From Pseudomonadales bacterium (GTDB lineage Bacteria > Pseudomonadota > Gammaproteobacteria > Pseudomonadales > UBA5518), in assembly GCA_024234165.1 (NCBI GenBank), contig JACKOP010000005.1:234078-298077 (forward strand): 64,000 bases of DNA, read 5' to 3'. The notes beneath the pieces are model-generated. The model was given only the letters and a program-made list of their open reading frames with translations. It searched no databases and had not been told where the DNA came from. This document shows, in pieces, positions 2,876 to 39,176 of the stretch. Position 1 is the stretch's first letter; the number at the start of each line of letters is the position of its first letter. The position numbers and the translations under genes are program-made.

Positions 2876-4540
<1,665 letters not shown>

Positions 4541-5756: not shown

Positions 5757-5951
5757 ATGCGAACCAACATTGTAATTGACGACGAGCTCATGAAGGACAC
5801 CCTTCGGGTCACGGGGCTGAGGACCAAGCGGGAGGTAGTCGAGCTCGGTCTTCGTACCATCCTTCGTCTCGACCAGCAAGCGCAGGTGCGCAGGCTACGG
5901 GGCAAGCTTGCGTGGGAGGGCGACCTCGAGGCCATGAGAACAGACAAGTGA
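5757..5951 (+). CDS. vapB: type II antitoxin, VapB (DUF2191-like)
   Basis: 64 aa, MRTNIVIDDELMKDTLRVTGLRTKREVVELGLR. Its stop overlaps the PIN gene start. Confidence 0.8.
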   Translation: MRTNIVIDDELMKDTLRVTGLRTKREVVELGLRTILRLDQQAQVRRLRGKLAWEGDLEAMRTDK

Positions 5952-6940: not shown

Positions 6941-8302
6941 TCACAGCGCCGCCAGCGCCTCGGACAATCGCGTCACGCCGACGATCTCCATGCCGTCGAT
7001 CGGCTTGCGCGGCACGTTGGCCAGCGGGACGATCGCGCGCGTGAACCCGTGCTTGGCGGCTTCCGCCAGTCGTTCGCCGCCGCTGGGAACGGGGCGGATC
7101 TCGCCGGCGAGGCCGACTTCACCGAAGCTGACCAGGCCGGCGTCGATGCGCCGATCGCGGTAGCTGGAGACGATCGCGAGCAGCAGCGCAAGGTCAGCAG
7201 CAGTCTCGCCGACCTTGATGCCACCGACGACGTTCGCGAACACGTCCTGGTCACCGAGCTGCATGCCGCCGTGACGGTGCAGCACCGCGAGCAACAGTGC
7301 GAGCCGGTTCTGGTCCACACCGACCGCCACACGGCGCGGATTCGCACCGAGGCTGTCGTCGACCAGCGCCTGGATTTCGACCAGCAGCGGTCGTGTCCCC
7401 TCCCAGACCACCATCACGACGCTGCCCGGGGCGATGTCGGTGCCGCGCGAGAGAAAGATGGCCGAAGGGTTGCGCACTTCGCGCATGCCACGATCGGTCA
7501 TCGCGAACACGCCGAGCTCGTTCACCGCGCCAAAGCGGTTCTTGCCCGCACGCAGCGCCCGAAAGCGGCTGTCGCCTTCCTCCTCGAGCATGATCGAGCA
7601 GTCGATGATGTGCTCCAGCACCTTGGGTCCGGCGAGCGTGCCGTCCTTCGTGACGTGTCCGACGAGGAACAGCGCGCTGCCGGCAGACTTCGCAAACCGG
7701 GTGAAACGGGTCGCACTTTCGCGCACCTGCGATACGCCGCCGGGCGCCGACGGCACATCGTCACAGTGCACGACCTGTACCGAATCGACCACCATCACGC
7801 GCGGCGCGAACTGCGCCGTCACCTCGAGGATCGCCTCGACGCTGGTCTCGGCAAGCATGCGCAGGCGGTCGGTCGGCAACCCCAGTCGGTGCGCTCGCAG
7901 CGCAACCTGTTGCAGCGACTCTTCGCCCGTCACGTAGAGCGCATCCATCTGTTGCGACAACGCGCACATCACCTGCAGCAGCAGCGTACTCTTGCCGGCA
8001 CCAGGCTGGCCGCCGATCAGATTCACCGACCCGGGCACGATGCCGCCGCCCAGCACGCGGTCGAACTCGACGTAGCCGGTCGAGAAACGTGGGACCTCGG
8101 CGAGGTCGATCTGATCCAGCGTCTGCAGCGCCGTCACATCACCCGCATAACCGCCGCGGCGCGTTGCGGTGCCGCGCGGCGCACCGGGCTCGACGAACTG
8201 GGTCATGGTGTTCCAGGCGCCGCAATCCGGGCATTGTCCGGCCCACTTGGCCTGCTCCGAACCGCAATCCTGGCACACATAGACGACTCTGGACTTTGCC
8301 AC
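6941..8302 (-). CDS. radA: DNA repair protein RadA/Sms
   Basis: Zinc-finger N-terminus CQDCGSEQAKWAGQCPDCGAWNT, Walker A GGQPGAGKSTLLLQ, and a Lon-like C-terminus. Confidence 0.97.
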   Translation of the reverse strand: MAKSRVVYVCQDCGSEQAKWAGQCPDCGAWNTMTQFVEPGAPRGTATRRGGYAGDVTALQTLDQIDLAEVPRFSTGYVEFDRVLGGGIVPGSVNLIGGQPGAGKSTLLLQVMCALSQQMDALYVTGEESLQQVALRAHRLGLPTDRLRMLAETSVEAILEVTAQFAPRVMVVDSVQVVHCDDVPSAPGGVSQVRESATRFTRFAKSAGSALFLVGHVTKDGTLAGPKVLEHIIDCSIMLEEEGDSRFRALRAGKNRFGAVNELGVFAMTDRGMREVRNPSAIFLSRGTDIAPGSVVMVVWEGTRPLLVEIQALVDDSLGANPRRVAVGVDQNRLALLLAVLHRHGGMQLGDQDVFANVVGGIKVGETAADLALLLAIVSSYRDRRIDAGLVSFGEVGLAGEIRPVPSGGERLAEAAKHGFTRAIVPLANVPRKPIDGMEIVGVTRLSEALAAL

Positions 8303-22824: not shown

Positions 22825-23251
22825 CTGCGCCCCCCAATCGATGTGCCGACTGTAGGTGGCCGCGTCACGCCGCGGCATCCGCCGGCAGGGATGGGTCAGG
22901 CAAGGCAGAAGGAGGATGCGGCATCGTCCGAAGGAACTATGCCCATCGGCGGCGCGTCATCGTGACTCGACGGCGCAAGCTGACTGTTGGAGCAAGCAGC
23001 TCCCACGGGAGCGAGAGGAAATGGACGCCATGTTCTGGTCATCCGGCAGCATGCGTGCTATACGGCAAGTTGCCGCGAAAAAACACGGCGAACTTGCGAA
23101 CCTGATCGAAAGGAAAGACGAGCAGGATGTTGTTTTTCATGACTTTGGATTCTGGAGATTTTTTATCAGTGTTTGGATGGCGCTCGAAGTCGCTGCGTGC
23201 TAGATGGATGAGTGCCGTGTTACAACACGGACGATTCCCGTCCACTCACTG

Positions 23252-23624
23252 TTAGTTTCGCTCCGCTTTTCGTGCAGAAGACAAAGTTGATGCTGTTCAG
23301 CGCGCAGGCGTTGTTGCACCAGAAAGCGCTCGCCGTGATTTCGCCGAGTCGTGGTTCAAACCGAGCGGCTATCGGCCAACGGTGATATGCACCAGTTTTG
23401 GGGCATTTGCCGTTGTCAGCCGCTGACGTCAGTTGTTCCGCGCGCGACGGAGTCTGAGCCAGGCTTGTGTGCGTTTGGAGATATCGCAACGGGGCTTGCA
23501 AGCGTGTGGCCGCGCGCGGCAGAGTAAGGCTGGATAGCGCGCTGTGCGTGAAGTTTGGAAAGTCGAAACTAACCCATCGCTGCAGGCACGACGGCCCTGT
23601 CGGGCCGCGGCCTGAGCTCAAACG
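23252..23624 (+). mobile_element. gene cassette 1 (373 bp, no convincing ORF)
   Basis: Begins TTAGTT after G23251. Its attC R'' is AACTAAC, the exact complement of G+TTAGTT. Confidence 0.6.
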
Positions 23625-23630
23625 TTATGC
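23567..23630 (+). other. attC recombination site of cassette 1
   Basis: R'' is AACTAAC and R' is GTTATGC. Internal stems CAGGC/GCCTG and GGCCC/GGGCC. Confidence 0.7.
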
Positions 23631-23700
23631 GCTCTTGTGGCCGCGCAGCCTGATTCATGTGAAAATCTACGCCATTCTTCCTAGTCGGCACCCAATCTCC

Positions 23701-24339
23701 ATGAAATCCCCGAAGTTTGACCGTTCTAAGCATGTGTACCGAAACGATGCGTTCGCCGAATTGGTAAAGGACGCAGTTCGTTTCTTCAACGGGACCCCGG
23801 TTCATACGCTGCCTCCCCCAGAAGAATTTTTTGGAACGGGGGTATATGCGTTGTATTACACGGGCAAGAATCCGCAATACAAAAAGTACGCAGACCTAAA
23901 TCGGCTGGCTTACAGCCATCCAATTTATGTTGGCAAGGCTGTGCCAAAAGGCTGGCGGCAATCGCGAATCTCAGATGGCGAGGGGGTGCAGTCGAAGGAA
24001 CTGTATACGCGGTTGCGCGAGCATTCGAGGAGTATTACGCAGGGTGCCGGCTTAGAGCTTAAGGATTTCTCCAGCCGTTTCGTAATCTTCGAAAAAGAAG
24101 GCTCCGATATGATCGGAACCATTGAGGCTGCGCTAATTAAGTTAAACCGGCCGCTTTGGAATACCGCTGTTGATGGGTTTGGCAATCATGATCCCGGTAG
24201 TGGGCGCTATGAGCAGGCCAAGTCAGATTGGGATGTCATCCATCCTGGTCGATCTTGGGCAGAAAAATGTAATGGCCGTCCTACAGACAAGCGCACGATT
24301 CTCAGCAATATTGAGCGTCATCTTAAAAGTCTCGGGTGA
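23701..24339 (+). CDS. GIY-YIG restriction endonuclease, Eco29kI-like
   Basis: KFDRSKHVYRND, GVYALYYTG, PIYVGKAVPKGWRQSRI, IEAALIKLNRPLWNT, WDVIHPGRSWAEKC. From memory this resembles Eco29kI. It is immediately upstream of a C5-methyltransferase. Confidence 0.8.
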   Translation: MKSPKFDRSKHVYRNDAFAELVKDAVRFFNGTPVHTLPPPEEFFGTGVYALYYTGKNPQYKKYADLNRLAYSHPIYVGKAVPKGWRQSRISDGEGVQSKELYTRLREHSRSITQGAGLELKDFSSRFVIFEKEGSDMIGTIEAALIKLNRPLWNTAVDGFGNHDPGSGRYEQAKSDWDVIHPGRSWAEKCNGRPTDKRTILSNIERHLKSLG

Positions 24340-25511
24340 TTGCAATGCGTTCTTTGGAAGTGTTCTCGGGGGCCGGCGGCCTCGCAAAGGGCCTTGAGCA
24401 AGCGGGCTTCGAGCACTCTGCTTTTGTAGAGTTCAACAAGCATGCATGTGCATCACTCTCAGAGAACTTCACGCCAGAGAGAGTTTTCTTTGGAGACATA
24501 AGAGATTTTGATTTGGGTAGCGTGGGGTCTGTTGATGTTGTTGCAGGTGGCCCGCCGTGTCAGCCGTTCTCTCTTGGTGGCAAGCACAAAGCAGATCAAG
24601 ATGATCGAGACATGTTTCCTTATGCCATTAGAGCAATTGAGTTCCTTACGCCTAAGGCCTTTGTTTTTGAGAACGTAAAGGGCCTGCTTAGGCCAAGTTT
24701 CGCTGAGTATTTTGAATACATTATTCTTCGCCTTACTTATCCGGGCTTCTCAGCGAAGCCAAAGATGGCGTGGCAAGATCATCTGGCGCAACTTAGAGCG
24801 GCGAACAAGTTCGCGTACGCCGGCGTTAAGTATGACGTTCAATATAAACTCATAAACGCTGCGGACTATGGCGTTCCTCAAACCCGCGAGCGTGTGGTTA
24901 TCGTTGGAATTCGTTCAGACCTTAAGAAAACATGGTCCTTCCCGGCTGCAACACACTCGGAAGATCGGCTGCTTTGGGAAATGCATGTGTCGGGAGAGTA
25001 CTGGCGGCGGCACCGAGTGGCGCTTGCAAAGCGCCCCAGCATCGAACCGTCCATGCAAGAGCGGATCGCGCGCATCAACGAGCGTTATGGGCTCTTTGAG
25101 CCCGAACTTCTACCTTGGAAAACTGTGCGAGACGCGCTCCATGACGTTCCTGATCCACGGAGCAAGCATGGCATTGCAGACCACATCTTTAAGGATGGGG
25201 CGCGTAGTTACGCTGGCCACACTGGCAGTGATTATGACTGGCCTTCAAAGACCATTAAGGCCGGAGGCCATGGCGTGCCGGGCGGGGAGAACATGATCCG
25301 CTACGCGGATGAAAGCATTCGCTACTTCACCGTCTTTGAAGCAAAACGCATCCAAACCTTCCCGGATGATTTCATTATCAAAGGTGCGTGGGGCGAGGCA
25401 ATGCGTCAAATTGGCAACGCCGTCCCGGTTGCTCTAGGTGAAGTCTTTGGCACCCATCTTTGGTCGCTGCTCTCGAAAAAATATTCCGCTGCTAAGGCGT
25501 CTGCCAAGTAA
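24336..25511 (+). CDS. DNA (cytosine-5)-methyltransferase
   Basis: LEVFSGAGGL (motif I), GGPPCQPFS (motif IV), ENVKGL (motif VI), QTRERV, and GNAVPV (motif X). The GTG at 24336 overlaps the upstream stop. An alternative ATG lies at 24345. Confidence 0.93.
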   Translation: MIAMRSLEVFSGAGGLAKGLEQAGFEHSAFVEFNKHACASLSENFTPERVFFGDIRDFDLGSVGSVDVVAGGPPCQPFSLGGKHKADQDDRDMFPYAIRAIEFLTPKAFVFENVKGLLRPSFAEYFEYIILRLTYPGFSAKPKMAWQDHLAQLRAANKFAYAGVKYDVQYKLINAADYGVPQTRERVVIVGIRSDLKKTWSFPAATHSEDRLLWEMHVSGEYWRRHRVALAKRPSIEPSMQERIARINERYGLFEPELLPWKTVRDALHDVPDPRSKHGIADHIFKDGARSYAGHTGSDYDWPSKTIKAGGHGVPGGENMIRYADESIRYFTVFEAKRIQTFPDDFIIKGAWGEAMRQIGNAVPVALGEVFGTHLWSLLSKKYSAAKASAK

Positions 25512-25535
25512 TTGGCAATTAGTTTGAGTGTTCGC

Positions 25536-25589
25536 GCATAACGAATAGGGATAGGTCGCGCGCAGCCGCGACCTGATCCCGGGTTGAAC
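25536..25589 (+). other. attC recombination site of the R-M cassette
   Basis: GCATAAC-GAATAGGGATAGGTCGCG-CGCAGC-CGCGACCTGATCCCGG-GTTGAAC. The R'' GCATAAC is the complement of the cassette start G|TTATGC at 23624-23630. Confidence 0.85.
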
Positions 25590-25813
25590 AAGCCCGTGCC
25601 CTGGAGTGGCGAACGCTTTTTTATAGGGGAAAGCTTTTCGGACGTGTGAGGGCATCGTTGCCCGATCAGGCGGATGATTTTCACCAGACGAACGCGGCCC
25701 GCACCCGCGAGCGCAGCGTGTCTTGCCTGTCTGGATCCATCAGTGGCGCGAGGTCCTCCTCGGGAGTGGATTGCCGGCGAGCACACCACGCTCTCCGGGC
25801 CAGCGGATCATGT
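25584..25813 (-). mobile_element. truncated second copy of the recombinase/IS91 unit (transposase-distal end only)
   Basis: It is the reverse complement of about 31300-31536, with few mismatches. IS66 cuts it at 25814. Confidence 0.75.
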
Positions 25814-25834
25814 GTAAGCGGTCAAACGACGCCG

Positions 25835-28288: not shown

Positions 28289-28876
28289 CGCCTGATGGCG
28301 ATGCTCGAGGGCTGCGCAGAGCTCACGCTCGAGCGGCTGAACGAGGCCACGCAGGCCTGGGTCGAGATGGAGTACAACCGCCGTTCTCACAGCGAACTCG
28401 GCTGTTCTCCGCTGGCACGCTACGGCGACGGCACCGATGTCGGACGCGAGTGCCCCGGGAGCGAGCGGCTGCGCCAGGCGTTTCGCACCGAAGCCGTGCG
28501 CACCCAGCGGCGCTCCGACGGCACGTTCTCGCTCGAAGGCACACGCTTCGAGGTGCCCTCGCGCTACCGCCACCTCGCACGGCTCACGGTGCGCTACGCG
28601 CGCTGGGACCTGCGCACGGTCGAGCTGATCGATCCGCTGAGCGGGACGCCGATCTGTGCGCCCTACCCGCTGGACAAGACGGCTCACGCCAGCGCCGCGA
28701 GGCGCCTGCACGCAGTGCGCACGCCTCCGGTACCCGTGCTGCCCGACCCGCCGGCGCACAGCCCCATGGCGCCGCTGTTGCGCGCGCTCATGGTCGAGTA
28801 TGCCGCCACCGGGCTGCCCCCGGCCTACGTGCCCCTGTCCAACGACGCACCCCTTGCCGAGGATCCGCTGCGATGA
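28289..28876 (+). pseudogene. 5'-truncated Mu/Tn552-like DDE transposase (end of rve core plus Mu-transposase C-terminal domain)
   Basis: Begins abruptly at the IS66 end. WVEMEYNRRSHSELG and LTVRYARWDLRTVELID motifs. Confidence 0.65.
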
Positions 28877-29199
28877 ACAAGCAACTGCTCGCCCTTTATG
28901 GTCTGAAGTGGAATCCCTTCTCGCCCGAACTGCCCACCGAGGCGCTGCGCCTCACGCCGGCGGTGGAGAACTTCGCCTGGCGTATCGAGCACGCGCTCGT
29001 GCGCGAAGGCGGCTTCGCGCTGATCAGCGGCGATGTCGGTACGGGCAAGAGCGTGGCGCTGCGTCTGATCGCCGAGCGCCTCGCCCCCGTGCCGGATCTG
29101 ACCGTTGCCGCACTCACGCACCCGAGCGCCAACCTCGCCGACTTCTACCGCGAGCTCGGTGATCTGTTCGCCGTGGAGCTGCGCCCGCACAACCGCTGG
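28873..29199 (+). pseudogene. ExeA/TniB-like AAA ATPase, N-terminal fragment
   Basis: MNKQLLALYGLKWNPFSPELP, with Walker A GDVGTGKS. The reading frame is broken after ...RPHNRW by the 29200-31577 insertion. Confidence 0.75.
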
Positions 29200-29311
29200 T
29201 TGAACGAAGCCGCTTCGCGGCAGGAACAAGACGAGAAGAACGAGACGCCAAAACCGGGAAACTTCTCCGGCACCCCCAGGCCCGGGTGTGCATCACCAAA
29301 GGAGAAGCGAC

Positions 29312-30217
29312 ATGGATTCATCGGAGCAAACCCGTTTTGACGCACTGTACGCGAAGCATCTTAGAGCACTGAAGCTTCAAGGCAAGGCAGCGAAGACGAT
29401 CGATGGTTACGCACGAGTGCTGCGCCGGGTAGCCGCACACTTCGATCGCTGTCCGGATCGACTGGACGCGGAAGACTTCAAGTCCTACTTCGCCTCGCTG
29501 ATCGACGAGCGATCGTGGAGCCTGGTGAAGATCGAACGCTGCGGACTGCAGTTCTTCTACGAACACGTCCTGGAGCGGGAGTGGCCGTGGGTGGGCATGC
29601 TCAAGCCGCCGGTGGTGCACGCGCTGCCCGATGTGCTCAGCGTCGACGAGGTCGCACAGATCATCCGGGCGAGTCGCGAGCGGCGCTACCGGACGTTCTG
29701 GCTGACGACCTACAGCCTGGGCCTGCGTCTGGGCGAAGCGCTGCGGTTGCGGATCGGTGATATCGACAGCGCCCGTGCCCAGGTCCATATCCGCAGCGGC
29801 AAGGGGCACAAGGACCGCTTCGTGGTGCTGCCGGCACTGACCCTGCAGTGCCTGCGCCGCTACTGGCGTGATCATCGCCACCATGAGCTGTTGTTTCCAG
29901 GGCGTGCTGGACCGCAGGGTATTCCGGCTGCCACCTTCATGGATCGCGGCAGCACCCAGAAGGCGTTTGCCCGTGTCGTGGCCGACTGCGGCATCCGCAA
30001 GCGGGTGTCGATCCACAGTCTTCGCCATGCCTACGCCACCCACCTCATCGAAGTCGGCCTGAATCTGCGCGGTGTGCAGGAACTGCTCGGTCATGCCTGC
30101 CCGAAAACCACGGCGCGCTATGTGCACATGACGGACAAGTGCCGTGATGATCGCCGCGTGCTGATCGACGGCTTGATGGGCGAGTTGCACCAGCGTCTGC
30201 GGGAGGCTCGGTCATGA
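29312..30217 (+). CDS. tyrosine recombinase (XerD/IntI-like, without the IntI-specific insertion)
   Basis: AAGGAG sits 7 nt upstream of the ATG. LQFFYEHVLEREWPW, GLRLGEALRLRIGDID, GKGHKDR, SLRHAYATHL, LLGHACPKTTARYVH (R-K-H-R-H-Y set). Confidence 0.85.
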   Translation: MDSSEQTRFDALYAKHLRALKLQGKAAKTIDGYARVLRRVAAHFDRCPDRLDAEDFKSYFASLIDERSWSLVKIERCGLQFFYEHVLEREWPWVGMLKPPVVHALPDVLSVDEVAQIIRASRERRYRTFWLTTYSLGLRLGEALRLRIGDIDSARAQVHIRSGKGHKDRFVVLPALTLQCLRRYWRDHRHHELLFPGRAGPQGIPAATFMDRGSTQKAFARVVADCGIRKRVSIHSLRHAYATHLIEVGLNLRGVQELLGHACPKTTARYVHMTDKCRDDRRVLIDGLMGELHQRLREARS

Positions 30218-30250
30218 CCCAAGCCCTCGCCCCCCCTGCGTCTGGCCGAG

Positions 30251-31285
30251 GTGTTCGACGCCGGACACGCCGCCCTGATGGCGCGCTACGGAGCGCGCCT
30301 GCACCCCCGACAACACCAGGCGATGGCCGCCATCCGGGGCTGCCGAAGCGGTGAGCTCGGTGAACTGCACTGGCGCTGTCCCGACTGCAGTGCACGACAC
30401 CACACGCCCCGCTCCTGTGGTCATCGCAGCTGCCCGGCCTGCCAGAACCACTGCACCTCGCAGTGGCTCGATCGGCAACGCCGTAAGCTCCTGCCCGTGG
30501 ACTACTTCATGGTGACCTTTACCTTGCCGGCACCCTTGCGTGCCGCCGCGCAGGCGTACCCCGAAACCGTCTATGCCGCCTTGTTTCGCGCCGCCTCGCA
30601 GACCCTCAACGGTTTCGCGACGCGAAAGCTCAAGGCGGAACTCGGCCAATGCGCGGTACTGCACACCCACAACCGTCGTCTCGATCTGCACCCGCACGTG
30701 CACGTCATCGTGCCCGGAGGCGCAATCGATGCGCGGCGCCGGCAGTGGCGAAAACTCTCCGGGCGTTACCTCTTCAACGCCTTTGCCCTGGCCCGGGTGT
30801 TCCGCGCCCGTATGCTGCAGGCCCTGCAGCTCGCCGGCGTGCCGATCCCTGTCGGCCTGCCGCCGAAATGGGTGGTCGACTGTCGCCGTGTCGGTCGTGG
30901 CGAGCCGGCATTGCAGTACCTCTCGCGCTACCTCTATCGGGGTGTCATCCGCGAGCGCGACCTCCTCGACTACGACCGCCTCGCCGGCACCGTCACCTTC
31001 CGCTACCGTGACGCCAAGACCCGCCAGCCCGCACAGCGCACCCTGCCCATCGCCGAGTTCCTGTGGCGCGTGCTCGCCCACGTCCTGCCGACCGGATTCC
31101 GTCGTGTGCGCGAGTACGGATTCCTGCACTGCCGAGCCAGGCGACGCCTCGTTCTCGTGCAACTCGTCTTGCATGTGCTGGTCCAGGCGGCAACGTTGCG
31201 ACCACGCCCACCGCTGTGTTGCATGCGCTGCCATACCCCGATGATCGTCGTCGCCGTCACCAAACGCCGCAGACCCGACGGCTGA
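30251..31285 (+). CDS. IS91-family HUH-Y2 rolling-circle transposase (N-terminus uncertain or frameshifted)
   Basis: Zn-finger CPDCSARHHTPRSCGHRSCPACQ, HUH motif HPHVHVIVPGG, Y2 motif YLSRYLYRG. An ATG at 30214 (ATGA with the upstream stop) is out of frame by one C in a C7 run. Confidence 0.85.
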   Translation: MFDAGHAALMARYGARLHPRQHQAMAAIRGCRSGELGELHWRCPDCSARHHTPRSCGHRSCPACQNHCTSQWLDRQRRKLLPVDYFMVTFTLPAPLRAAAQAYPETVYAALFRAASQTLNGFATRKLKAELGQCAVLHTHNRRLDLHPHVHVIVPGGAIDARRRQWRKLSGRYLFNAFALARVFRARMLQALQLAGVPIPVGLPPKWVVDCRRVGRGEPALQYLSRYLYRGVIRERDLLDYDRLAGTVTFRYRDAKTRQPAQRTLPIAEFLWRVLAHVLPTGFRRVREYGFLHCRARRRLVLVQLVLHVLVQAATLRPRPPLCCMRCHTPMIVVAVTKRRRPDG

Positions 31286-31529
31286 GGCAACGTTCGCGGA
31301 TCGCCACATGATCCGCTGGCCCGGAGAGCGTGGCGTGCTCGCCGGCAATCCACTCCCGAGGAGGACCTCGCGCCACCGATGGATCCAGCCAGGCAAGACG
31401 TGCTGCGCTCGCGGGTGCGGGCCGCGTTCGCCTGGTGAAAATCATTCCGCCTGATCGGGCAACGACGCCCTCACGCGTCTGAAAAGCTTTCCCCTATAAA
31501 AAGCGTTCGCCACTCCGGGGCACGGGCTT

Positions 31530-31577
31530 GTTCAACCCGGGATCAGGTCGCGGCTGCGCGCGACCTATCCCTATTCG
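31530..31577 (+). other. attC-like site at the end of the recombinase/IS91 unit
   Basis: GTTCAAC-CCGGGATCAGGTCGCGG-CTGCGC-GCGACCTATCCCTATTC-G. G plus the unit's first 6 nt TTGAAC gives GTTGAAC, the complement of GTTCAAC. Confidence 0.7.
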
Positions 31578-32052
31578 ATGGGCTTCAAGGCGCTGCGTAC
31601 CCGCTGGATCGCCCATCTGGAGAGCACGCGGCTTCGCCCCGTGCTGCTGATCGACGAGGCGCAACAGGTCGCCCCGCTCGTGCTCTCGGAGTTGCGCCTG
31701 CTCGCCTCGGCGCACTTCGACTCGCGCAGCCTGCTGAGCGTCGTGCTCGCCGGCGACCAGCGTCTGAACGAGTTGCTGCGCCGCGACGAACTCCTGCTGC
31801 TCGGTTCGCGCATCCGCGCACGCCTCTCGCTGGAGTACGCCAGCCGCGAGGAACTGCTGGCCTGCCTGAAGCACCTGCTCGCAAGCGCCGGCGCCCCGCT
31901 CTGATGACACCCGAGCTGATGCACACCGTCTGCGACCACGCCATGGGTAACTACCGTGCGCTCACCACCATGGCCGCGGAACTGCTCGCCGCCGCCGCGC
32001 AGCGCGAGCTCGTCCAGCTCGACGAGAAGCTGTACCTCGCGGTGTTCACGCC
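31578..32052 (+). pseudogene. ExeA/TniB-like AAA ATPase, C-terminal fragment with an additional frameshift near 31895
   Basis: GFKALRTRWIAHLESTRLRPVLLIDEAQ (Walker B) continues the N-terminal fragment. The frame changes at ...SAGAPL* / MTPELMHTVCDHAMGNYRAL. Confidence 0.65.
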
Positions 32053-32445
32053 CCGGGGCAATCCGCCGGCACGCGCCGCACCCGGCTCACCAGCGCTTGA
32101 GCCGGCAACCATGAAATCGTCCCGGCACCACCCCATCGAATTCCCGAGCAGCTCAGCGACGAGGGCGCGGCACACATCCTCGACTTCCTCTACGAGGTGA
32201 TCCGCGCCTTCGAGTCGCGCTACTTCGTGCAGATCCGTCGCCACCATCGCCACACCGCCGCTGAGTACGCCGCCCAGCGCGCCGAGCGCACCCAGCTCGA
32301 ACTGCCCTCACAATCCCCGACGAGCCGTCCGACCCGGTCTTCTGAGCCATCGTCAGACCGTCGCCACAGCGCCTCGCAGCCGCCGGGCGCTGCGGTTGCG
32401 TCGCACCCAAAACGCGGTCGACACCGGCAGCGCCAATGCCGGACA

Positions 32446-36956: not shown

Positions 36957-37010
36957 CCCTAACGAATAGGGATAGGTCGCGCGCCGCCGCGACCTGAGCC
37001 CGGGTTAGGG
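36957..37010 (+). other. attC site of the vapBC::IS66 cassette
   Basis: CCCTAAC-GAATAGGGATAGGTCGCG-CGCCGC-CGCGACCTGAGCCCGG-GTTAGGG. R'' is the complement of the cassette start G|TTAGGG at 33760. Confidence 0.88.
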
Positions 37011-38500: not shown

Positions 38501-38504
38501 ACAC

Positions 38505-39176
38505 TCACTGTAATCCGTGCTCGGTGGCAATCACGGCCGCCTGTACCCGCGACGCGACGTCGAGCTTGCGCAGCACGTGCTGGACGTGGATCTTCACCGT
38601 CGTTTCGGCAATGCCCAGCTCGCGTGCAATGACCTTGTTGCTGTCGCCTCGAGCAATGCCTCGCAGGATATCGCGCTCGCGCGCGGACAGCGCATCGAGC
38701 GGCGAGGTCGGCGCCGGATTTTGCTGCAACACCGTGTCCGTTTGACGCACTGCCGACACCAGCTTGGTGGTCATCTCCGTGGCGATCACACTCTCGCCCG
38801 CCATCGCACGCCGTATCGCATCGCCGAGTACGTCACCATCGATCGTCTTCAGCAGATAACCACAGGCACCACCGCGCAGCGCATCCAGCAGGTCCTGCTC
38901 GTCCTCGCTGACGGTGAGCATCAGGATCCTCGCGGCGGGCGCCGCCTCGCGCAGAGCGGGCAGTGCGTCGACCCCGCGCACTCCGGGCAGGTGATTGTCG
39001 AGCAGCACCAGGTCCGGCTGCTGCTCGGCTGCGCGCAGCAGTGCATGACTCACGTCCGCCTCGTCGCCGATCACGAGGAACCCGGGTTCACGCGCGAGCA
39101 GCGCAGTGAGTCCACGGCGGAACAAGGTGTGGTCATCGACCACGAGGATGCGGATCGGCGTAGCCGTCTCGTTCAT
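38505..39176 (-). CDS. narL: nitrate/nitrite response regulator
   Basis: REC domain RILVVDDHTLFR and a LuxR HTH LSARERDILRGIARGDSNKVIARELGIAETTVKIHV. Adjacent to narX. Confidence 0.93.
   Translation of the reverse strand: MNETATPIRILVVDDHTLFRRGLTALLAREPGFLVIGDEADVSHALLRAAEQQPDLVLLDNHLPGVRGVDALPALREAAPAARILMLTVSEDEQDLLDALRGGACGYLLKTIDGDVLGDAIRRAMAGESVIATEMTTKLVSAVRQTDTVLQQNPAPTSPLDALSARERDILRGIARGDSNKVIARELGIAETTVKIHVQHVLRKLDVASRVQAAVIATEHGLQ

Follow-up and report, generated by a model that had tools for sequence, protein, structure and literature searches.

An intact Eco29kI-type restriction-modification operon of integron-cassette descent, probably joined at its R'' box to the hairpin of an inverted mobile element

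The closest described relative of the locus presented here is Eco29kI, a restriction-modification (R-M) system of the small Escherichia coli plasmid pECO29 (NC_001537), which shares the recognition sequence CCGCGG with its isoschizomers SacII, Cfr42I, and NgoMIII. The roles of the six active-site residues of its endonuclease have been established by mutagenesis (PMC1952068), and its internal methylase promoter Met_P, within the endonuclease gene, is reported to lie about 227 nt before the start of the methyltransferase gene (PMC3113576). R-M systems have been known as integron cassettes since 2001 (Rowe-Magnus et al. 2001, as cited in PMC4176335), and defence cassettes have been described in sedentary chromosomal integrons (bioRxiv 10.1101/2024.07.02.601686). 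The Eco29kI family was named as an integron cassette in no paper found by our full-text literature search.

Here, we describe an intact type IIP R-M operon of the Eco29kI family at positions 23701-25511 of a 64-kb stretch of DNA (the window). As in Eco29kI, the endonuclease gene (R) lies directly upstream of the methyltransferase gene (M) on one strand, an order also found, with R-M gaps of -1 to 17 nt, in 74 distinct relatives. Both proteins are collinear with their pECO29 counterparts over the full length: R shares 66% of its residues with R.Eco29kI in a gap-free alignment, and M shares 64% with M.Eco29kI across 379 residues, a span that takes in the variable region between motifs VIII and IX. 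The likeness extends to the active-site residues, the methyltransferase motifs, and a TATGAT hexamer at the codons of the inferred Met_P -10 element. Unlike Eco29kI, the pair in the window is chromosomal and lies in a cassette array, and the promoter region upstream of its R gene is unrelated to that of pECO29.

The R gene (23701-24339, plus strand) encodes an Eco29kI-family GIY-YIG restriction endonuclease of 212 aa. An earlier note on this DNA had read it as Eco29kI-like from its GIY-YIG pattern and had suggested a database comparison to assign the family; that comparison bears the reading out. A profile search matched R to PF09517 (E 4e-71; 238.6 bits against a curated cut-off of 30.8) across profile positions 2-164 of 164, and PDB entry 3mx1 (Eco29kIR) aligned gap-free with residues 4-206 (E 3e-92). 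All six active-site residues (Y49, Y76, R104, H108, E142, and N154) are kept, with numbering identical to that of R.Eco29kI, and the two tyrosines stand in the motif contexts GVY49ALYY and PIY76VGKA.

The M gene (24345-25511, plus strand) encodes a C5 cytosine DNA methyltransferase of 388 aa, with matches above the cut-offs to PF00145 (E 1.6e-61) and TIGR00675 (E 7.5e-54). As had been claimed, it carries the canonical C5 motifs: I (FSGAGG at residue 7), IV (GGPPCQPFS at 68), VI (ENV at 109), VIII (QTRER at 179), and X (GNAVP at 357). The proposed overlap of the R stop with the M start holds only for a GTG start at 24336. By homology to M.Eco29kI, since both proteins start with MRSLE, we place the start at the ATG at 24345, 5 nt past the R stop, whereas M overlaps the R stop in Eco29kI. 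A 299-aa M call in L004 and L005 was considered as a possible mutation and rejected, being a difference between gene callers. The claim of a complete Eco29kI-like gene pair is thus upheld by full-length genes, family profiles, and motifs, and the inactivating mutations that the earlier note had allowed for were not seen: both open reading frames are full length and every catalytic residue and motif is intact.

From the 64-66% identity to Eco29kI, the likely specificity is CCGCGG; R would be expected to cut this site when unmethylated, and M to protect the sites of the host. If it behaves as Eco29kI does, the pair would act against phage and plasmid DNA entering the cell, and a cell that lost it would pay a cost, so that the island carrying it would be stabilised. 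In this it resembles reported R-M and defence cassettes, being a small type II system beside toxin-antitoxin cassettes; for such systems, a role in stabilisation or defence has been suggested. It differs from them in that the array has no integrase in the window and has been scrambled by IS66 and IS91-type elements.

The genes are probably expressed from promoters of the unit itself. Some 40 nt ahead of the R ATG, TGTGAAAAT (23658-23666, plus strand) is a candidate extended -10 element (TGnGAAAAT), predicted from its sequence, and ATG(A/T/G)GAAAAT is kept at the same place upstream of R in many relatives, in cassette and non-cassette forms alike. Within R, the hexamer TATGAT (24108-24113, plus strand; codons D136-M137-I138) falls where the -10 element of Met_P has been inferred, and it may serve as one. 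The same hexamer is found at the same codons in pECO29. In the window, it is followed by a putative start point some 225 nt ahead of the M ATG, compared with the 227 nt reported for Met_P.

Could the pair be a passenger relic kept by linkage, either silent, or with an attenuated R, or with a specificity other than CCGCGG? A strict sigma-70 scan upstream of R gave no full promoter, and the TG that belongs to the extended -10 element of Met_P in pECO29 reads CG here. RNA support is also weak: RNA-labelled runs yielded exact pieces of R and M, in low-depth metagenome contigs, and DNA carry-over could explain them. In addition, CCGCGG is not avoided in host DNA (35 sites observed vs 33.6 expected, ratio 1.04, or about 0.7 sites per kb); this would suit a relic, although non-avoidance gives no information for or against R-M activity. 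Set against these points are the intact genes and residues described above and a sequence that is invariant across many samples. Moreover, with 38 CCGCGG sites in the 64 kb of the window, an intact R could not be tolerated unless M were active or R silent. Conservation of the family across phyla is also high, at 73-86%, pointing to strong purifying selection. We consider a non-working relic unlikely and regard the pair as a resident, probably active system. One of the 38 sites does lie at 23605-23610, inside the upstream attC, where the earlier note had drawn attention to it; with 37 others in the window, there is nothing special about it.

The locus is stable and widely sampled. It is 99.9-100% identical in 10 assemblies, all 10 places with an identical R protein are the same narK-adjacent locus, and at least 20 runs from activated sludge or wastewater, drawn from 14 studies, contain it. 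The pair is likely to shape the entry of phages and plasmids into this activated-sludge/wastewater host.

The R-M unit descends from an integron cassette that travels among many species. Its G+C content is about 50%, against about 65% for the host background, and its left boundary is a true cassette junction, G/TTATGC (23624/23625-23630; here and below, a slash marks the recombining bond), at which metagenome contigs diverge (23624-23626). The same TTATGC start, together with a GCATAAC R'' box after M, is found in five homologous cassettes (L012, L013, L019, L053, and L081), and the GCATAAC box also follows M in L101, which with L102 shares 82% DNA identity with positions 23628-25510. About a dozen relatives in other species (counted as L012, L013, L019, L021, L025, L045, L048, L053, L063, L079, and L081) have a G/TTATGC or G/TTGGGC start, a complementary R'' box, and a canonical attC. 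In five of these loci (L025, L081, L063, L045, and L053), an IntI homologue with 44-59% identity to IntI1 lies upstream on the opposite strand. Hence the idea that an R-M system as a cassette is uncommon does not hold: relatives stand in about a dozen arrays, and the pair in the window is one more well-conserved Eco29kI-type system among R-M cassettes of a kind described since 2001. What the relatives add is that the Eco29kI family is a recurrent integron cassette across Pseudomonadota, Nitrospirota, and cyanobacteria.

Among environmental bacteria whose integrons are complete, Eco29kI-like cassettes are found, for example, in Gallionellaceae (L025), Nitrosomonas (L063), Synechococcales (L081), Methylobacter (L053), and Pseudomonadales (L012 and L018). 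The unit in the window shares with them a G/TTATGC or G/TTGGGC start 73-96 nt before the R ATG, the ATGnGAAAAT element, and an R'' box that is complementary to the start and either coincides with the M stop or follows it closely. These cassettes end in a canonical attC of 63-111 nt with bulges on the 5' arm. In the window, by contrast, the attC body is replaced from the AA/C bond onward, and there is no intI within 64 kb, where the sole IntI1-like match is the recombinase of the recombinase/IS91 unit described below (30% identity). With no integron integrase in the window, the R-M pair is no longer a clean, independently mobile cassette.

It is at the right-hand end that our analysis departs most from the earlier note, which had described a single 1,959-bp cassette reaching to 25583 and closed by its own attC. 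The R'' box GCATAAC (25536-25542, plus strand) is complementary to the G/TTATGC start, and after it come a GC-rich stem-loop (25548-25580) and G/TTGAAC at 25583/25584 (GTTCAAC at 25583-25589, read on the minus strand), with the TTGAACAAGCCCG sequence adjoining the stem-loop on its downstream side. However, positions 25542-25814 match 31305-31577, read as its reverse complement, at 96-99% identity, unbroken through the stem-loop, and this homology starts exactly at C25542 (GCATAA/C). We identify the segment 25542-25814 (minus strand), including the stem-loop at 25542-25583, as the 3' end of an inverted tyrosine-recombinase/IS91 unit that is cut by IS66 at 25814. Consistent with an inverted orientation, the predicted fold of the plus strand places the bulged G on the 3' arm, as in L045 and L062, whereas control attCs from arrays of known intI orientation carry the bulge on the 5' arm. 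In metagenome contigs, the hairpin side, from about 25535-25539 onward, is joined to several different left flanks. In four DNA runs, a 2,065-nt contig was present at equal depth, and it may represent either another locus or a variant allele of this site. A further joint seen in contigs, from 23627 to 25539, was set aside, as one side spans 27 letters and lies in a repeat of 15-30 copies.

Only the R'' box of the R-M attC therefore remains at the 3' end of the R-M DNA, where no complete attC (R''-L''-L'-R') of the same polarity, with extrahelical bases on its L'' arm, is present. The stem-loop at 25542-25583 most probably belongs to the neighbouring inverted mobile element and not to the R-M cassette. 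With the stem-loop not the cassette's own attC, the R-M-derived DNA (23625-25541, plus strand) runs from the TTATGC start through the promoter region and both genes as far as the sixth base of the R'' box, and it most probably ends at the A25541/C25542 junction, cut off from its own attC body. Of the boundaries first proposed for the pair, the left boundary and the R'' box GCATAAC stand, and the assignment of the stem-loop falls. The by-eye rule behind that assignment, in which a start complements an R'' box, is strand-symmetric: the opposite strand shows the same complementarity, and the rule therefore cannot decide which cassette a stem-loop belongs to and may misassign one.

An independent case supports this interpretation. 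In the E. coli plasmid RCS41_p (NZ_LT985243), a related unit sits backwards in attC_aadA1 of a class 1 integron, in the order GTCTAA/C, hairpin, unit, GTTCAA/C, and the rest of the attC. In both loci, a gene stop and an R'' box are followed by the C, hairpin, GTTGAAC, and AAGCCCG of the inverted unit, and the break is at the AA/C bond of the R'' box. The RCS41_p unit is complete and the rest of its attC is visible at its other end; in the window, IS66 interrupts the unit at 273 nt, and what should remain of the R-M attC is absent. A search of both strands of the window for this remainder, which our interpretation predicts, found no second 5' end of the unit and no second site like the upstream attC (S1, see below), and this counts against the interpretation. 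In L045, positions 7611-7631 were considered as a candidate attC remainder of that locus and rejected as lying inside a coding region.

Should the stem-loop nevertheless be the cassette's own, the pair would form a single complete cassette of 1,959 bp (23625-25583) ending in GCATAAC, the stem-loop, and a G, and the inverted unit would begin with TTGAAC at 25584 as the next cassette. The composite site, 25 nt after the M stop, does have the formal layout RYYYAAC-hairpin-GTTRRRY. A hairpin of this type is an ordinary attC at 36962-37003, and the same family recurs after the R'' boxes of L045 and L062, neither of which has an IS91 or recombinase gene close by. Nonetheless, the stem-loop is identical at 42 of 42 positions to the end of the inverted unit and continuous with it, and its bulge arm is opposite to that of R-M attCs in arrays of known intI orientation. 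The R-M genes of L045 also point away from intI, as they do with a canonical attC, which misfits an attC of reversed polarity. Furthermore, the module interrupts the known attC_aadA1 at the same bond in the plasmid, and TTG(A/G)AC(A/G)A(A/G)CCCG always follows the hairpin, in four independent contexts. On balance, we regard a single complete cassette as quite improbable.

We propose instead, with reasonable confidence, that the window holds an intact Eco29kI-type pair of cassette descent whose R'' box was joined, at the AA/C bond, to the attC-like terminal hairpin of the inverted recombinase/IS91 unit. Relatives of this unit insert backwards at the AA/C bond of resident attC sites, and IS66 would have truncated the inverted unit later, so that the rest of the R-M attC is no longer adjacent; this order of events is our reconstruction. 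If so, the junction adds to the clinical plasmid a second natural case in which an inverted element carrying an attC has struck another attC at the R'' bond, and it is relevant to the way in which cassette arrays break down into clusters without an integrase.

More tentatively, and with considerable doubt, we suggest that an attC-like hairpin module of about 70 nt (C-GAWTARGG...CCGG-TTGRAC-RARCCCG), which occurs alone or as the end of the recombinase/IS91 unit, defines elements that recombine at the R'' (AA/C) bond of resident attC sites. The strand in question is the one normally not used by integrons, and Eco29kI-type cassettes (the window, L045, and L062) would be recurrent partners. Were this true, the resulting convergent attC pair would either lock a self-expressed defence cassette in place or make it part of a larger composite that still moves between species. 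In L045 and L062, both Eco29kI-like cassettes, the module likewise follows the R'' box; neither IS91 nor recombinase genes were found beside it there, and the module could be those cassettes' own site.

Upstream of the pair lies a plus-oriented attC, S1 (AACTAAC ... G/TTATGC; 23567-23630), with 5'-arm bulges on the plus strand. It most probably belongs to a preceding cassette without an open reading frame. In DNA metagenomes, its core (23577-23627) has 15-30 times the depth of the flanking sequence and is thus a multi-copy attC family. S1 agrees at 48 of 64 positions (75%) with the attC of L101, the R-M relative closest to the pair, which also fits a permuted cassette, in which the circle was opened at the R'' rather than the R' bond and inserted backwards into a minus-oriented array. 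The body of the cassette's own attC would then be S1 (23573-23623), the cassette would span 23573-25541 (1,969 bp), and circularising it would restore GCATAAC, the S1 body, and GTTATGC. The match to the L101 attC covers both L boxes and the spacer lengths, and S1 is the island's only plus-oriented attC, the hairpin-type attCs being all minus with their genes in sense. The chemical event, recombination of the R' bond of the unit with the R'' bond of the R-M cassette, is the same as in the junction that we propose. Yet similarity to L101 need not mean orthology in a family of 15-30 copies, and in L013 an attC upstream is near-identical to the R-M cassette's own in a normal array, so that a look-alike neighbour can arise without permutation. 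The unit family has also been seen directly as the mobile partner, inserting backwards. Permutation would further leave the 321-bp segment 23252-23572 without an attC body and joined to the chromosome through an R'' bond. Taken together, these points make a permuted cassette decidedly unlikely, and S1 is better read as the attC of the neighbouring cassette. Beyond that segment, the flank at 23180-23251 (S0) lacks an R'' box and has a 67-nt look-alike elsewhere; it is probably chromosomal sequence next to narL rather than an attC.

Here, we show that the restriction-modification (R-M) genes of the window are an ordinary Eco29kI-type pair, of cassette origin and probably active. The endonuclease gene (R; 23701-24339, plus strand, ATG start, 212 aa) matches the Pfam family RE_Eco29kI (E = 4e-71) and the solved Eco29kI chains (E = 3e-92), and its product is 66% identical, over 208 gap-free residues, to the enzyme of the Escherichia coli plasmid pECO29, which carries the prototype system. 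Because that alignment has no gaps, the residue numbers are those of the pECO29 enzyme, and all six residues placed in the Eco29kI active site by modelling and mutagenesis (Y49, Y76, R104, H108, E142, and N154; PMC1952068) are kept. The C5-methyltransferase gene directly after it (M; 24345-25511, plus strand, 388 aa) matches the profiles PF00145 and TIGR00675, contains motifs I, IV, VI, VIII, and X, and shares 64% identity with M.Eco29kI across 379 residues, the variable region included. These matches bear out the family assignment of the earlier note, and the two identities make CCGCGG a reasonable expectation for the specificity. That note also had the stop of R overlapping the start of M; since both methylases open with MRSLE, M starts instead at the ATG at 24345, 5 bases past the R stop, and not at the overlapping GTG at 24336.

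The pair is preceded by a cassette start, G|TTATGC (23624|23625, plus strand), and followed by an R'' box, GCATAAC (25536-25542, plus strand). Its relatives number 5,058 proteins at E<=0.001, many of them 75-86% identical, from several phyla. A screen of 71 distinct relatives looked for GTTNNNN 40-150 nt ahead of the R start codon, the exactly complementary sequence at the M stop, and a hairpin with GTT at its end. Nine loci were positive (L012, L013, L019, L025, L045, L048, L053, L063, and L081, with GTTNNNN 73-96 nt before the ATG), and L021, L079, and L101 are further cassette cases; two lineages occur, GTTATGC/GCATAAC and GTTGGGC/GCCCAAC. In L012/L018 and L013 the pair lies amid small same-strand ORFs, the cassette starts at G|TTATGCGC, and after M GCGCATAAC opens a 111-nt canonical attC. 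Upstream and on the opposite strand, L025, L081, L063, and L045 carry IntI homologues (54-59% identity to IntI1), and L053 a 58-residue N-terminal IntI piece (45%). From these cassette-type relatives and IntI homologues, the R-M pair is a genuine, widely travelled integron cassette whose normal polarity has the genes running away from intI. In the Synechococcales MAG locus L081 (4750-7900), the R-M cassette lies ~300 nt from the start of the IntI homologue (54% identity to IntI1), on the opposite strand, and apparently occupies the first cassette position of that integron. Non-cassette relatives also exist, such as L011, after metH; this closest protein relative (86% identity) has a duplicated target stretch, ~21 nt of the metH 3' end (AAAAAATGGCTGGCGAATCTG), on both sides (5895-5925 and 7829-7858).

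The numerous cassette relatives contradict the view that an R-M system is a rarity as a mobile cassette, and R-M systems in integrons have been cited since Kobayashi 1999 and Rowe-Magnus et al. 2001 (PMC4176335). According to a recent survey, chromosomal integrons have small type II and IV restriction systems among their commoner defence cassettes (bioRxiv 10.1101/2024.07.02.601686). Our literature search found no paper tying Eco29kI specifically to integrons.

The right-hand boundary is another matter. After GCATAA comes a GC-rich stem-loop (25542-25583), followed by G|TTGAAC (25583|25584), and the earlier note had read 23625-25583 as a complete 1,959-bp cassette, with start/R'' complementarity as proof of the boundaries. 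That complementarity is identical on either strand and hence cannot assign the stem-loop to a cassette. The reverse complement of 25542-25814 is 96-99% identical to 31305-31577, the 3' end of an intact tyrosine-recombinase/IS91 unit inserted in a tniB-like gene, and this identity runs unbroken through the stem-loop, halting exactly at C25542, the bond GCATAA|C. The fold of the stem-loop has one bulged base, a G, on the plus-strand 3' arm, whereas in the R-M attCs of L025, L081, and L053, with polarity set by intI, the bulges are on the 5' arm as read on the gene strand, and so are those of the attC upstream of R-M (S1; 23567-23630); by this measure the stem-loop reads on the minus strand, with the inverted unit. 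The E. coli plasmid RCS41_p (NZ_LT985243) has a related unit in reverse orientation between aadA1 and qacEdelta1, in the order aadA1-TAA-GTCTAA|C-hairpin-GTTGAAC-AAGCCCG...unit...GTTCAA|C-AATTCGTTCAAGCC...GCGTTAGAT, so that the well-known aadA1 attC is interrupted within its R'' box, at AA|C, and what is left of this attC lies at the unit's far end. The hairpin and TTG(A/G)AC(A/G)A(A/G)CCCG form one conserved module, present three times in the window, in RCS41_p, and after the R'' box of the Eco29kI-like cassettes L045 and L062. In addition, metagenome contigs join the hairpin side, from ~25535-25539 onward, to several differing left flanks. On these grounds the stem-loop is most probably not part of the R-M cassette. 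This junction is the more interesting part of the locus, yet chiefly a property of the neighbouring recombinase/IS91 element. L045 and L062 come from two further MAGs, and close to their modules (4103-4170 and 7779-7850, respectively) there is neither an IS91 nor a recombinase gene; the next gene in L045, on the opposite strand, encodes a D12-class adenine methyltransferase.

How might this arrangement have arisen? In the likeliest course of events, a plus-oriented R-M cassette would have come after the ORF-less cassette at 23252-23624; the inverted unit, or another cassette with such an attC type, would have joined the R-M attC by recombination at its R'' bond; and the first IS66 copy would later have cut the unit at 25814, removing everything beyond, including the rest of that attC, whose remainder we searched for in the window and did not find. 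Its form is probably shown by the closest DNA relative, L101/L102 (beside valS; 82% identity over 1,885 nt), with the attC GCATAAC-AATTT-GCTGCAGGC...GCCTGAGT-TCAAAC-G. S1 is identical to the L101 attC at 48/64 positions, which would suit another, less likely reading: an R-M circle opened at the R'' bond may now lie the wrong way round in a minus-oriented array, S1 being the attC that belongs to it (23573-25541). However, in DNA metagenomes the S1 core (23577-23627) has 15-30 times the depth of the unique sequence beside it, which makes S1-type sites a multi-copy family there, perhaps belonging to a large integron array of this organism or of one that co-occurs with it; in the normal array of L013, the upstream neighbour's attC is nearly identical to the R-M pair's own; and the unit family has been directly observed as a backward-inserting partner. 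All three points weigh against that second reading.

As for expression, ATGnGAAAAT, ~40 nt upstream of the R ATG and conserved in many relatives, cassette and non-cassette alike, looks like a candidate extended -10 element; a strict promoter scan gave no full sigma-70 site there. The Eco29kI system depends for its establishment on a promoter within R, whose start point lies 227 nt ahead of M (PMC3113576). pECO29 R has the hexamer TATGAT at its D-M-I codons, and it is kept here (24108-24113), but the preceding TG of pECO29 is CG in the window. The host part of the window shows no CCGCGG avoidance (35 observed vs 33.6 expected), and with ~0.7 sites per kb an active R would require an active M; one site lies inside the upstream attC (23605-23610), as had been noted. 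The R-M locus is 99.9-100% identical across 10 assemblies, and at least 20 activated-sludge or wastewater runs, belonging to 14 studies, contain every sampled word of it. Exact R and M pieces also occur in RNA-labelled runs, at a low depth compatible with DNA carry-over, and are weak evidence of transcription.

The R-M unit has ~50% G+C against a background of 65%, within a low-G+C, 15-kb insert between narK (ending at 22878) and narL (38505-39176) that also holds two IS66 copies, the recombinase/IS91 unit, and several toxin-antitoxin pairs. The window contains just one sequence resembling IntI1, namely the tyrosine recombinase of the recombinase/IS91 unit (30% identity). The whole island lies between two copies of a 10-bp direct repeat, CACTCACTGT (23243-23252 and 38502-38511), the right one overlapping the narL stop codon, and the left junction reads G|TTAGTT. 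Within the ORF-less cassette, a strong imperfect hairpin (23355-23441), with TTCAAAC and GTTGTTC at its limits, may represent another degenerate attC; the cassette would then consist of two units. An RNA-labelled sludge run has one contig in which 23253 is connected to 25540 (CACTCACTGTT|AACGAATAGG), a form without the ORF-less cassette and R-M; its shorter side has only 30 letters, and other sequence may intervene. One end of a 2,065-nt contig from four DNA metagenomes matches 23189-23255 (2 mismatches), the other 25537-25566; this contig is nearly as deep as, or slightly deeper than, the R-M form in three runs and roughly half as deep in another (31.5 vs 30.6, 7.4 vs 13.1, 19.3 vs 21.7, and 15.9 vs 16.6), and represents either another locus flanked by the same sequences or an alternative allele with ~1,970 nt of different content. 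The intact recombinase/IS91 unit (29200-31577) splits a gene for a TniB-like AAA ATPase (28450-29199 and 31578-32100), with the Walker A motif before the insert and the remaining gene after it.
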